The position numbers and the translations under genes are program-made. Shown piece by piece: positions 10,113 through 20,917 of a stretch of DNA of 64,000 bases. The stretch is taken from assembly GCA_951406725.2 (NCBI GenBank), contig OX597819.1, positions 31,682,001-31,746,000 on the forward strand, in the 5' to 3' direction. Below the pieces are notes generated by a model. That model was not told the DNA's origin. It saw only the letters and a list, made by a program, of their open reading frames with translations, and made no database searches. Numbering within the stretch: the stretch's first letter is position 1; the number at the start of each line of letters is the position of its first letter. This DNA comes from Octopus vulgaris (lineage: Eukaryota).

Positions 10113-10558
10113 GCATCTTTTCGGTTTGACAGACAGTTTTTTCTAGAGGTGTCATATGAAATTGTCACCCATAATTATGACCCTAGTATCGATGTATTGC
10201 ATTTCAATCTATTTTAGGGTTAGGGTTAGATTTAGGGTTAGTTAGGGTTAGGGTTAGGGGTGGGAGGAAGGGTATCTTTTTTTCTTCACAAATGTAAATA
10301 AACCCAATCTGTTTCTTAAACGAGGGGCATTTTATACGGCACAGAATGTTTTCACCTCAATAGACAGTCACTGATTGGTTGAAATTGCAGAAATTGAAGA
10401 AAAAACAACAACAAATATCTTACAAACTATAGAATTTTCTCAATAAAGCCAAGAGAAAAAGATGTTTTATAAACACATTCTACCAGTATACGAAGTTTAA
10501 AAGTGTTTAGTTACGTGGAAATTATTAAAAAAAACTGCCGATCAAACCGAAAAGATCC
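10113..10558 (-). mobile_element. TIR MITE with telomere-like tract, copy 3 (inverted)
   Basis: Reverse complement of copy 2; TTAGGG repeats at about 10214-10260; CAAGCAT in both flanks, left TIR eroded. Confidence 0.9.
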
Positions 10559-10735: not shown

Positions 10736-10924
10736 TGATGTCATAGAACATTTCAAATGAGGAAACCAATTCACAGGACGAATTGATTTTAGCCACATAT
10801 ATTTGTTGATACGTAATAGATTTTTTAGGTCGAAAATAGAGAAGAATTGAAAACAATAGGCCCGTCAGACTGGTAACACGTCATAGAAATATGATCACGT
10901 GCTTAGCCATCAAATGTTATATAA
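10736..10924 (+). promoter_or_regulatory. Putative protamine promoter: CRE-like sites, E-box and TATA box
   Basis: TGATGTCA 10736-10743, CGTCA 10863-10867, ACGTCA 10878-10883, CACGTG 10896-10901 and TATATAA 10918-10924, about 95 nt before the ATG at 11017. Confidence 0.55.
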
Positions 10925-11016
10925 GGGGAGGTCTCGACCTGTCTGTATCAGTTCCGATCGCCTTGGTTTCGATAGAAGACAAAAAATATTCTTTAGTTGT
11001 CTTTCCTTCATCGGCG

Positions 11017-11364
11017 ATGATTCTGAAAGATAAGGTTCAGACTCTGGGCCGTAAATTTCTCGGCTCCATCAATGGTTGCCGGACGCCTTCAGTCGCTGCC
11101 GGTTATAGGCGTCGGAGAATCACAGCTCCTCGTAATGCTAACAGCCAGCAGAGTTTGTTGGATGGAGGTTACCGCAGAAGAAGAAGAAGGGGTCGCAGGG
11201 GTCGCAGGCGAAGAGGTCGTCGTCGTCGTTCGAGAGGGAGACGTAGAGCGCATGGAGGGAGAAGGAGGAGGAGGAGGAGGAGGCATAGGAGAAGGCGTGG
11301 AAGGAGAGGAAGGCGTTCAAGGGGACGGAGGAGGTCTTCGGACCCATATGGTTCATCAGCCTAA
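11017..11364 (+). CDS. Sperm protamine precursor (115 aa, tandem Arg-rich modules after Gly-Gly motifs)
   Basis: MILKDKVQTLG..LLDGG|YRRRRRRGRRGRRRRGRRRRSRGRRRAHGG|RRRRRRRRHRRRRGRRGRRSRGRRRSSDPYGSSA*. Mixed Arg codons (CGC, CGT, CGA, CGG, AGA, AGG) argue against a simple repeat; upstream TATA and downstream AATAAA are present. The ORF-track start at 10891 lies upstream of the TATA, so 11017 is preferred. Confidence 0.85.
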   Translation: MILKDKVQTLGRKFLGSINGCRTPSVAAGYRRRRITAPRNANSQQSLLDGGYRRRRRRGRRGRRRRGRRRRSRGRRRAHGGRRRRRRRRHRRRRGRRGRRSRGRRRSSDPYGSSA

Positions 11365-11429
11365 TCAGCCTAACAATTTTAGTGGCAACAGCGTCTTCAC
11401 ACCTTTCTTGACTGTTAATAATCAGTAGA

Positions 11430-11435
11430 AATAAA
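11430..11435 (+). terminator. Polyadenylation signal of the protamine gene
   Basis: AATAAA about 65 nt after the stop, followed by T-rich sequence. Confidence 0.6.
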
Positions 11436-11699
11436 TTATCTACATCTGAATTTGGTCTTATCTTAATTTTTTTTAGTTTCAATTGATTTAGATCGGTGAG
11501 TTTTTACGACCCTAGAAGGACGAGATTCCTCGATAAAAGAAATCTAGATTTCTATTTCAGCAAGTATAAAATCCCCAAAATTTGTTCTTTTTTAAGGTGC
11601 CCAACAAATTGAAAAAGTTTATCAACATGGAACGCTGAAAAGCATCGGCAGCAGTATTAAAATCAAGTATAACTGACCAAAAAGATATTCGGGTTTTGA

Positions 11700-12692
11700 G
11701 CTCCACGACATCTTGATGTCGAGAACAAACTTTTTGAAAACTTTTGGCGATATCGCCAGCTTTTGGCAACTTTTGGTGCAGATTCTCTTTGCTCAACTTG
11801 TTATGTTCAATGTAACGATCAGACGCTACACACGTTCCTTCCAAGACGCCATACTGTAAGACACAGTATGGACGACGCGTGGAAGAGGGAATTGAGACAG
11901 GTAAGTTTCTTCTGCTTGAGACAGGTAAATTCATCTCCGGATGCGAGTTGAATTATTTTAACTATCACCTGCGAAGTAAGATCCATTTTAAATCACCTGC
12001 GAAGTAAGAACCGTCTGGAGAGGAAGTTCCTGTCTCAAGGTGCTTCGAAAAAGATGGATGCCTGTAGTTAAGAATGATGCGAGCGGAAGGTGTCTAGCTC
12101 ACTTCAGCTGTTTACAGCAGTGCATGGAAGGAACATGTGTAGCGCCTGATCTTATCACCATCTGTGTATCAGAGGATGTGCAGATTAGTTACGGTACAGT
12201 TCAGTCCATTATCACTGAAGATTTGGGTATGAGACGCATGTCTGCCATGTTTGTGCCAAAACTGCTTTCAGCTGACCAAAAAGACACTGGGGTTTCAGTT
12301 GCACAAGATCTTGTGTCGAACGATGAAAACTTTCTGAAAACTTCGTGTAGGCTTGACTAGGTATTGCCTACTGAGTAGGTATTGCGTAGGCCTGAGTAGG
12401 TATTGCCAAGATTTTGGCAAAATTTGATGCAGATTCTCTGCTCAACTTTCTGTAGTGGTCAAAGTAGCGATCAAACGCTACCCACCTTCATCAAACGCTA
12501 CCCACCTTCATCAAACGCTACCCACCTTCCTCCCAAGCACTGCTGTAAACAGTGGAAGTGAGGCAGAACGTTAAAACTTTGTGCGCATGCACAGCAAACT
12601 TTAAGGTCAATCTGTGTCAAGCGGCTTTACTCTGCGTGCTTGTGCTTCGTTACTCTGGCAACAGACTGGAACTTGTTGATCAGACTATGTAT
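11700..12692. mobile_element. Degenerate mariner relics including a transposase fragment
   Basis: VQISYGTVQSIITEDLGMRRMSAMFVPKLLSADQK (about 12178-12280) matches the mariner HTH plus WVPxxL region; related blocks at 11760-11880 and 12410-12550; TIR-like end GGAACTTGTTGATCAGACTATGTA. Confidence 0.7.
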
Positions 12693-13949: not shown

Positions 13950-16550
13950 ATCAAAAGCTTTACACTGATCAAAATGTACCAATGCTCCACCTTCGCTAGA
14001 TTTATCACCAACCCATTCTGTGGCCAGTTCGTGTGTACACGTCAGCCAGTAGGTGCTTGAACAAGACTGGCATACATTTATACAGCTCGTACGGAAGAAC
14101 ATCAAGTCCCGGCGACTTACCCGCTTTGCAGTCGGCCATATCCTCCATCACCTCATAGGCGTGATTAGCCCTTCGCAAGACTCCGCATCCGACCCCGAGA
14201 GGCACAGCAGCCCGGCAAGAAAGTCCTCGAGGATTCCCCCACCATCAGGACCGCCATCACCGCCGAACAGCTGGGGGAAGTACTCCCGAAAGGCCTCACA
14301 CATTTCCTCGGATTCGTTTACCAAGACATCATTTTGATTCGTCAAAGACCGAATAGTGGAACTATTTCCTTGTCGAGCTTCCACCACTCGGGTCCATCCA
14401 GCAGCCTTGATTCCTTCACTTCCCATCGCACGTAACTTAGCAATGTGTTGGGCTTCAAGATGCTGGTTTAACTCCAGTCTTTTCACCCTCACTTGGTCTG
14501 CATTACCAGTCCTCCAGGCTTCTTCTAGTTCCTTAACTAGATCATCTCTTATTCTACGTCCCTTCTTAGCTAAACTTATGCTAAATCTAATAGACTCATA
14601 TTTTATGGCTCCTTTTAGGGCGTGCCACCATTTGTTATTAATGATGGTACCTGTCAATGCCCTCTGTATTAACATCTCGATCAGCTTTCTGTACTCCTCA
14701 ATCGCCAAAAGGAACTATTGAGTTTCCAGTAGCCGGATCCCTTTCTATGCAACTTATCTACTGTCAGCTTACTGGTAACCATCTTGTGGTCACTTAGCTT
14801 TGGACTTCTGTTTTTCTAATTAGAACCCATAACGTTGGGTGCATAAATTGCAAGCAGCCTGGTTATCGTGCCGCAACTGAATGTCAGGTCGAGGGCAACC
14901 AAACCTGCCTTCTGGATCAGAAAAAAAACAACTTTTTCTCGGCTACCCGGTTTCTTTTTAGTAGGACCAACACCCCACCCCCACCTCCCACCCGACTCAG
15001 AGAAACGTATTTCTCATAGCCGTTCAGGAGGGGGAGCAGATCTCTTGGCCCCTTCACCCGGGTTTGCGTTGCAACAATCACATCTAATTTTCTTGACCTG
15101 ATGTCATTTAGGAAGCGCCCTTGCTTCCAGCTAGACATCAGGCCACGAACATTTACACAACCAATGTAAATAGACATTACTTAAATACGTGTTAACTAAT
15201 ACATTATAAGTCTTTTTATCCATTTCGTAGAACTTGTAGTTCTTATATTTATCAGAAAGTTCTGCAATCCTAGTGGCTGATTTTTTTCGCCTTTATTTCT
15301 CTCATTAAATCTTCATTTTTGCTGTATAACGCGACTATCTCTGTCTTCTGCTCCCTTCCTTACTATTTTTGGCTTGTCTCTTTTCGCAGTTTTTTAAAAT
15401 CTTAGTTCGACCTGCTTTTGTTGATTTGAGCTTTCTATTTTTCTCGTTGTTAGTTGCTTTCTTTTCTTGTTTCTCTCTCATCCTCACCATCGGATTCTTC
15501 TTCGCCGGTTCTACAGTGTTTTTTTATATGGCCCAGCTGGTCACATTGAAAACATCGGGGCTTACGCCCTTCGACGTATACGTTAAGAAGTTCCTCCCCA
15601 ATTTCTATTTTCTCCGGTAACTGTTCTAAACTTGACTGTTCTGCTTGCATTAGGTGAACCGTTTGACCGGTCCAATAAACCTTTCCTGTGACAGTAGCCT
15701 GAAGGAGTGTTATATTATCTTCCTTTTTGCCAGGGCTGCCGTCATCAACCATATAGGGTCGACTTTGAGGTGAGACTCTTGGTATATGTATCTTTGACGT
15801 CCTCATTCCCATATATATTGGAATTAAAACAACGTCCCCCGTTTCTAACAGCGCATTTGTGCAGTTTCTATATCTTTTAGTCGTACTTCGATAGTACTAA
15901 ACTTCTTCCCTCTGGCTAGGTATGTGATATCCTCCCAGAAGGGTTTCAAGCACTTCTCAATTTTCTCTTCGCTCACTCGATTAATTGTTTTCTTTTTAGA
16001 CAGTAAGATTTTAAAATAATTGTTTTTGTTTTTTGTAACATTAATAGTTCTTCCGGAGGTTGAACTTTTACAACACCGTCTTCAATTATCATATCTTTGT
16101 ACTTTATCAGGTCATTTTTGTTTGTCAACAGCTGGCGGGTTCCACCTTCAGCCGCCGACGCAAAACTTTTTTTGTTTATTTTCTTCTGTTTCAATACTTT
16201 TCACGTCAATATTCCTCTTTGCAACAGTACCCATTGATGGTTGGGGAAATTCACTTTCAGAAGAATCCGAAATATCACCAAATATTAAACTATCAATCTT
16301 TTTTGCCTCCGTGTTGGTTGACGACTCTTCGCCAGACGAAGTTACACTTTTTGGCATCTTGCCAGCAATTAATGTTTCCCCCACAGGGGAAAACACACGA
16401 TAGCTTTCGAACGAAGACTATCACACAAATAATTATTACAGGAACAATAATTATAACAGGAAATAACACAAAAACAGTCAATAGAAACTTGCACTTACTA
16501 TACAGACGCACACCAATAATAATTACCAATAAATCCAAACTCACACAAAC
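13950..16550 (-). mobile_element. Disrupted L1/Tx1-clade LINE: ORF1 (zinc knuckle), APE endonuclease and partial RT
   Basis: ORF1 pieces with CFQCDQLGHIKKHC; ORF2 start MSIYIGCVNVRGL at 15177; SDH at about 14790; GSGYWKLN at about 14730; GKSPGLDVLPYELYK; DQCKAFD at about 13960; many frameshifts and deletions. Confidence 0.9.
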
Positions 16551-19625: not shown

Positions 19626-20917
19626 CTAAGTTTCGCCTAAAGCTCTGATTAAATTATTAAATACCACGTCCATATCAACTGATAATTGCTTCTCTTGTAC
19701 CGTAATTCCGGCACTAGTTATTCCGGTATTCCGATAATCCGGTAAACCGGTAGGTGGAGTCGTTGCAAATGATGTAAAACCAACATGGCTACTGGTTAGA
19801 AAATTTGAAGTACTAAAGTTGTTGTGGTGTATGCTGTTGTTGTTGTTGTTATTGTAGGTGTTAAAATTGATAATGTTGTAATTGTTATTATTGTCATTGT
19901 TAGTATTAGTGTTATTCATACACAAGTTGCTACTGCCGTTACTACCACTACTACTACTACATATATGATTATTACTACTAACGTTACCGGGCAGCGAATT
20001 CGACGACGTTGTATTAGTTGCACCCGTCGTCGTCCTCGTCGTAGTCGTCGTCGCAGTATTGTTAGTTGGGGTGGCGGTAGAAGTAGTAACAGTAGTAGTA
20101 GTAGTAGTAGTAGAAATAATAGAAGTGTTGTTAGTCGTAGTAGTACTACTGCTGCTACCAGTTGTGGTGGTAGTACTAGTAGTAGTGGCGGTAATAGGAG
20201 TGACAAGACTGGTGGTAGTGATATTCACCCCCGTCACCGCCGCCGTCGTCGTCGTTAAATGGTTAACTGCAGCTGGAGACGATGGTGGCGAAGGTGGAGG
20301 CGTACTGGCCTCAAGACTTCGTACCAGTGAGTCGGTCATGTCGTCGGTAATTTTTTCGGTTTCAGTCGGGAAACACGGCTCATCAAAGAGAAAAGCAGCT
20401 GGTGTTGGCAAGTAACTGTTACCAAGCATATCGTAATCGATTCTTCGAGGTCTGTAGTACGGATAACCGGCAGAAGCCAAGCCGAGACTTCCACTAAAAC
20501 GTGTATTGCCTCGTTTCTCTTCACGGATTTCCTGGTGAAGTCGACGGAGCACGTTGTTGATTAGGACGGACTTCCGTAGAAAGTTCTCCGGGTCTTCCAT
20601 TGCCCGCAGTTTATGTACGGACAAACGAACAATTCGCTTGCGTTCGTCCTTGCGTTGTTTGGGCGTGTTTAGAAACGGTGAGACACGTTTCGGTGCTGGA
20701 CGTTCAAGGTAAAATTCTTCTTCTCTGTAGCTGTCTACGAAGTCACGAAGCTTCCTCTTCATAACTCGGTGGTTAGACCCACCACTGGTGTTGCTCGTGT
20801 TGGTAGTGTCAGCGAGCAGATCACTGGCCTTGCAATAATGGTAGTCAAGCTGACAGAGAGCTGGATGCGGCAGGCGAAGTGCCACTTCCGTGTCGTTTTT
20901 CATCGCACTGTCATTTT
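19626..20917 (-). CDS. SERTA-domain transcriptional co-regulator (SERTAD4-like), terminal coding exon; first in-frame ATG at 20903 (425 aa)
   Basis: ERKRIVRLSVHKLRAMEDPENFLRKSVLINNVLRRLHQE is a SERTA motif of the DPExxLRxSVLINN type; N-terminal MKRKL; C-terminal DMDVVFNNLIRAL; poly-T/S/N tracts; splice acceptor TTTTTATATTTTTCAG ending at 20918. Confidence 0.9.

Follow-up and report, generated by a model that had tools for sequence, protein, structure and literature searches.

Can one short octopus gene encode more than one protamine, and if so, what would cut the products apart? The question arises from an open reading frame in a 64,000-nucleotide stretch of Octopus vulgaris DNA (the window), which the initial annotation took to encode tandem protamines separated at di-glycine cleavage sites. 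Protamines are small proteins of 3-10 kDa with an Arg content of up to 80% (PMC11607694), and in Sepia protamine-like proteins replace the histones directly (PMC4675893). The features below were read from the sequence and its translation; a slash marks a possible cut.

10878 to 10883, plus strand: CRE half-site-like hexamer ACGTCA, weak alone, about 70 bases upstream of the predicted transcription start
10918 to 10925, plus strand: TATA box TATATAAG, the sole match outside (TA)n tracts among 14 TATA+initiator matches in the window
10948 to 10953, plus strand: initiator TCAGTT, predicted +1 at 10950, 30-32 bases past the TATA box, a canonical spacing
11017 to 11364, plus strand: coding sequence of the 115-aa precursor, with no good splice donor
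11017 to 11169, plus strand: 51-aa leader ending in LLDGG
11095 to 11118, plus strand: AAG/YRRRR in the leader, a possible weaker first cut site or relic unit
11164 to 11169, plus strand: Gly-Gly pair 1, predicted cut after it
11170 to 11259, plus strand: protamine unit 1, 30 aa (aa 52-81), with 20 Arg in five Arg codon types, 3,942.5 Da
11254 to 11259, plus strand: Gly-Gly pair 2, predicted cut after it
11260 to 11334, plus strand: protamine unit 2, 25 aa from aa 82 to the last Arg (24 aa, to 11331, in the initial annotation)
11335 to 11361, plus strand: non-basic 9-aa tail SSDPYGSSA, without Gly-Gly
11430 to 11435, plus strand: polyadenylation signal AATAAA with a T-rich stretch behind it

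Translation confirmed the precursor (13.9 kDa, net charge +47) with the leader, unit 1, start of unit 2 and tail that had been described for it. The description of a short frame with TATA box and AATAAA was equally borne out, since promoter, ATG and poly(A) signal follow one another in canonical order, and the first ATG past the predicted transcription start, at 11017, is the start codon of the precursor. A longer in-frame ATG at 10891 was considered as the start and rejected, as it lies upstream of the TATA box and probably outside the mRNA. With a looser TATA+initiator pattern, 13 of the 14 matches in the window fall in (TA)n tracts. The pattern used for the genome count, drawn up after the site had been seen, has 2,901 matches genome-wide against 2,713 in the reversed control, or about one per 1.9 Mb of strand, so that the probability of a chance match within 100 bases of the precursor ATG is about 5 in 100,000. 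A CRE is present in squid and mammalian protamine promoters. No splice donor scoring at least 6 of 8 consensus positions occurs in 10950-11460; splicing is therefore unlikely to part the two units, an outcome that had been named beforehand as grounds for giving up the polyprotein reading.

The surroundings contain short interstitial degenerate TTAGGG repeats at 10213-10260, some 700 bases upstream of the promoter. Sequence at 11670-12480 and 14148-15812 probably derives from transposons, being mariner-like and LINE-like by eye; a weak zinc knuckle at 15453-15812 is the sole Pfam match within them.

Both units are small and very rich in Arg, as protamines are: Arg makes up 67% of unit 1 and 79% of unit 2 (19 Arg in 24 aa, or 20 in 25 aa), with masses of 3.4-3.9 kDa, and 8.3 kDa for both together. 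Their Arg clusters have few interruptions and include Arg-Ser phosphorylation sites (RRSR at aa 70 and 99, RRSS at 105). An alignment of the two units matches at 23 of 32 columns, much of it owing to composition, and they have RRSRGRRR in common. The abortive module that had been pointed out in the leader is present as well, its GYRRRR being identical over six residues to the start of unit 1, while the Tyr codon and most of the Arg codons differ.

All six Arg codons are used in the precursor; in unit 2, seven of the eight leading Arg codons are AGG, as a triplet expansion would give. Arg runs elsewhere in the genome are mostly microsatellites of one or two codons, in contrast to the mixed codons found here. 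A mixed-codon block with at least 17 Arg in 30 residues occurs in 144 kb around the gene only in the precursor, and none was found in 171 kb of other DNA (315 kb screened in all).

Does the gene have relatives or records? Word searches with the whole protein, its C-terminal 74 aa and its leader returned no match, and a full HMMER scan of 1.84 billion representatives no homologue. The precursor has no Pfam match, hence no histone domain; a PDB search gave only matches at E 0.04 and 3.1, and an Atlas search only two clusters, both bacterial, scoring 0.77-0.78, short of lead level. HMMER and profile methods discount the biased composition of Arg-rich sequence, and the protein collection may lack short peptides. 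None of 14 forms of the frame and its units had an exact match in that collection, and two short motifs were absent from the literature searched. The neighbouring SERTA gene is present in the collection. With this neighbour recorded and the 14 forms missing, the protamine gene seems to have escaped automated annotation, as had been anticipated. The bee protamine gene was similarly overlooked until repeat filters were switched off (PMC12216123). The SERTA gene itself is a single-frame gene at 19626-20903 on the minus strand with a SERTA motif (PF06031), and its cluster includes Octopus vulgaris and O. sinensis proteins, which places the host in Octopus, with O. vulgaris the likeliest species.

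Within the octopus genome, a DNA search for paralogues found the gene itself and 10 simple-repeat matches only, and a search with the leader its own match only. Five degenerate patterns had 259, 61, 67, 8 and 0 matches genome-wide, each fewer than in the reversed control. Among the matches screened (44 of 259, 37 of 61, 30 of 67 and 8 of 8) there was no second protamine gene, though more may exist; nor did a second copy occur in 80 kb of flanking DNA. The six supplementary files of a testis study in O. maya contain no protamine entry (PMC6341066).

The lack of any homologue or database record (protein collection, HMMER, Pfam, Atlas) in a genome rich in triplet repeats that yield Arg runs is what one would expect if there were no protamine gene here, and the frame were a chance or dead Arg-rich one, encoded another basic nuclear or secreted peptide, or were overlapped by the real product, an acidic protein of 118 aa. 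We consider this very unlikely, as the promoter, first ATG and poly(A) signal suit the precursor frame, and the Arg codons are mixed in a block that is unique in the DNA screened; the acidic frame, for its part, is likewise without record or family. That frame, rich in Glu, Gly and Val, runs from 11072 to 11428 on the plus strand over the protamine units and is probably a shadow of their Arg codons. The frame at 11017-11364 is very likely a real protamine-type gene, with predicted expression, and promoter anatomy, codon use, composition and internal repeat all speak for a protamine precursor built of two tandem units.

Are the Gly-Gly pairs placed as cleavage sites should be? They occur in the precursor only at aa 50-51 and 80-81, directly before unit 1 and unit 2. 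Two such pairs are unremarkable among 16 glycines, since they arise in 66% of 200,000 shuffles. With the Arg positions fixed, Gly-Gly precedes both unit starts in 0.23% of whole-protein shuffles and in 2.7% when only aa 44-108 are shuffled; for the second site by itself, local shuffles give Gly-Gly in 18%. The pairs precede the two longest Arg runs of the precursor (p 0.002-0.03). The statement that they fall exactly at module borders thus holds for both unit starts but fails for the end of unit 2, which had been set at 11331, between two Arg. That end is not readable from the sequence; the Arg block itself naturally stops at 11334. As this end is without Gly-Gly, a single Gly-Gly protease cannot produce all the proposed ends, and a second activity is needed. 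Of the idea that several protamines are released by one Gly-Gly protease, the tandem two-unit precursor is supported, whereas the single enzyme does not account for the end of unit 2.

An analogy with the processing of ubiquitin and SUMO precursors had also been drawn, and it does not extend to the fold. No ubiquitin-like (beta-grasp) domain was found before either pair by Pfam or PDB match, the 51-aa leader and poly-Arg unit 1 being all that precedes them. LLDGG and RAHGG share their glycines only. Cuttlefish and squid protamine leaders end in Leu-x-Gly-Gly, and the octopus sequence follows the pattern of cephalopod precursors: its leader ends in Gly-Gly where the first Arg block begins, in an intronless gene with a TATA box.

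Removal of a single leader is documented in squid and in mammalian protamine 2 (PMC12216123, PMC9258737), and the octopus precursor may be of this squid type, cut at LLDGG alone to give one protamine of 55-64 aa in which AHGG is a flexible spacer left by internal duplication. The second pair, weak alone by the local shuffles, lacks the Leu of site 1, in keeping with such a spacer; yet it is the only other Gly-Gly, and the longest Arg run, which opens unit 2, stands right behind it. Units 1 and 2 left uncut would measure 55 aa, which we take to be the size of an ordinary squid protamine; the unit lengths in the initial annotation, on the other hand, agree with the several small protamines, of roughly 24-30 residues, that O. 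vulgaris sperm presumably contains. On balance a single squid-type product seems to us rather unlikely.

Another possibility, which we judge somewhat unlikelier still, is that DNA shields the Arg blocks while a broad protease and exopeptidases clear the non-Arg linkers left exposed, namely leader, AHGG and tail, leaving two protamines, with Gly-Gly merely the most flexible point. Insect protamines are trimmed extensively and heterogeneously (PMC12216123), and one mechanism of this kind would cover both the Gly-Gly-free tail and the lack of likeness between the residues preceding each pair. It would not be expected, however, to leave unit 1 with its AHGG end or its first Tyr, and the repetition of G/YRRRR in different codons suggests a defined site, as this motif arises in only 5 of 300,000 shuffles of the leader.

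That the precursor gives rise to two separate products is probable. Cleavage of a leader is widespread among protamines of vertebrates and invertebrates, squid included, and a mussel precursor yields two sperm proteins (PMC12216123, PMC5550673). We lean, cautiously, towards two small protamines released by cuts behind both Gly-Gly pairs, the tail being handled by a second activity. Direct observation covers the gene anatomy, both units and the positions of the pairs; from these we infer the following steps. Transcription would take place in spermatids from the TATA/initiator promoter. The precursor, weakly basic, would bind DNA and displace histones while its leader damps condensation, the Arg-Ser sites likely being phosphorylated. 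A cysteine protease in the nucleus, its narrow tunnel fitted to Gly-Gly, would then strip the leader, perhaps after a first cut at AG/Y (aa 29), and part the units. A second, non-Gly-Gly activity would trim the tail and perhaps also the Gly-Gly end of unit 1. The two protamines would result in a 1:1 ratio. Calculated masses are 13,737.6 Da for aa 2-115, 10,825.2 Da for aa 30-115, 8,313.4 Da for aa 52-115, 3,942.5 or 3,828.4 Da for unit 1 with its Gly-Gly or without it, and 3,380.9, 3,537.1 and 4,388.9 Da for unit 2 taken as aa 82-105, 82-106 and 82-115.

Which enzyme could make the Gly-Gly cuts? A search of the genome for SUMO proteases, of a kind that favours intronless genes, found a single domain that is both full-length and intronless, within a frame of 877 codons on C5 (L102:718-3351), and this SENP1 copy is the best candidate that we can propose. 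The earlier suggestion to look for a SENP or USP paralogue was fruitful to the extent of this candidate. The copy matches PF02902 (Peptidase_C48) at 134 bits, aligns to human SENP1 at E 1e-60 and retains the His-Asp-Cys triad, the oxyanion Gln and both tunnel Trp, as SENP1/2-type enzymes do. Its closest match in the genome is the SENP1 gene on C9 (L137-L144). There the catalytic domain is spread over six exons, interrupted by five introns of 1.1-2.3 kb, which makes the C5 gene a probable retrocopy. Identity between the two catalytic domains is 51% (110/215), with a saturated pS of 0.76 and a dN of 0.46, which indicates that the copy is old and under purifying selection. Its branch is twice as long as its parent's, and it carries a C-terminal extension of 435 aa of no known family. 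In the C9 parent, Ala replaces the Glu after WLND that is kept in the other 11 aligned sequences.

The C5 copy departs from its parent in the three loops that face the residues past Gly-Gly: HLESENHW, DSYLQDRDD and QENMSDCG, against HLEMHW, DSIGGKN and QMNGSDCG in C9. Of the tail-binding surface Trp410/Val477/Met497/Gly545 (SENP2 numbering, transferred from SENP1), Trp is kept; in place of the other three residues the copy has Asn, which follows a 2-aa insertion, Tyr and Met. The net charge of the tail-binding loops, in windows picked after the sequence had been seen, is -5 in C5, and 11 other sequences (one with an unscored loop, three near-identical) range from -2 to +2; that of the catalytic domain is -7, against +3 for the C9 parent, +4 to +6 for the closest four homologues and -6 for a distant partial sequence. 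SENPs cut after Gly-Gly through a narrow tunnel and have a defined tail-binding surface; their selectivity depends on charge complementarity with the residues that follow Gly-Gly, the acidic region of SENP1 selecting the basic tail of SUMO1 (PMC11587528). The acidified loops would, by the same complementarity, make the C5 copy prefer basic residues after Gly-Gly, and both sites of the precursor offer such residues.

The C5 copy retains the two acidic residues behind WLN as well as the RRW motif, which contact SUMO in SENP1, and SENPs normally require a folded SUMO domain; both points count against a maturase. A predicted complex of the C5 domain with precursor aa 36-65 scored 0.00 in both runs (without alignment, no controls folded) and speaks neither for nor against this role. 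The copy has no exact record at any of the five Met starts tried, and no octopus testis SENP was found in the literature searched, where most subscription papers were outside reach. As to other families, UCH gave 5 exon-sized matches at 3 loci in the genome and no intronless copy, and adenain no match, the control of that search being likewise unmatched. We find it doubtful that the C5 copy is the enzyme cutting the Gly-Gly sites of the precursor. Just as tentative is the wider idea of a dedicated octopus protamine maturase, a SENP1 retrogene whose acidic tail-binding loops would cut linear Gly-Gly/poly-Arg sites, stepwise release of the units timing chromatin condensation.

What would such a gene mean? 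We know of no protease identified as trimming protamine precursors, and the octopus gene provides a defined substrate with exact predicted masses, together with a candidate enzyme, by which protease identity becomes testable in vitro. Were the C5 retrogene the maturase, it would put a name to a protamine-processing protease with a defined site. The gene would supply a source of octopus protamines, apparently overlooked by annotation, and tandem duplication inside one precursor would, if our reading is right, be a route to small protamines in a fixed 1:1 ratio. Squid, insects and mammals all trim their protamine precursors, and both leader removal (squid) and the release of two sperm proteins from one precursor (mussel) are already known (PMC12216123, PMC9258737, PMC5550673). 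Tandem protamine units with Gly-Gly borders, or a protamine polyprotein punctuated by Gly-Gly, appeared nowhere in the literature searched, with most subscription and primary cephalopod papers out of reach. Our central claims are inferential, and we regard the frame as a real gene for an octopus protamine precursor of tandem two-unit design that annotation apparently missed.

Comparison with known systems places this design more precisely. Viral core polyproteins are matured by clan CE proteases, such as adenain and ASFV pS273R, and octopus site 1 fits what we take to be the Leu-x-Gly-Gly of ubiquitin ends and adenain sites. SUMO and ubiquitin maturation by SENP and UCH enzymes resembles the cleavage proposed here in that the cut falls after Gly-Gly, reached through a narrow tunnel (PMC11587528). 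These systems differ in that no ubiquitin-like fold precedes the octopus sites and site 2 departs from Leu-x-Gly-Gly. Mammalian protamine 2 has a leader that is cleaved once the protein is DNA-bound and that is required for fertility (PMC9258737), but it consists of one Arg/His/Cys-rich unit that is trimmed stepwise, without tandem units. The mollusc Mytilus obtains two sperm nuclear basic proteins, PL-II and PL-IV, by cleaving a single precursor (PMC5550673). These are histone H1-derived protamine-like proteins of different kinds, whereas the octopus precursor holds two related true-protamine units with Gly-Gly borders.

The squid and cuttlefish protamine gene is intronless, with a CRE/TATA promoter and a leader ending in Gly-Gly, and each precursor has a short leader and yields a single protamine. 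In Loligo opalescens and Sepia officinalis, as proposed here, the leader is N-terminal to an Arg-rich protamine and is removed in spermiogenesis (PMC11607694; PMC12216123, Fig. 3C legend). The octopus precursor differs from these in its two tandem units, its 51-aa leader with an Arg cluster of its own and its C-terminal tail.
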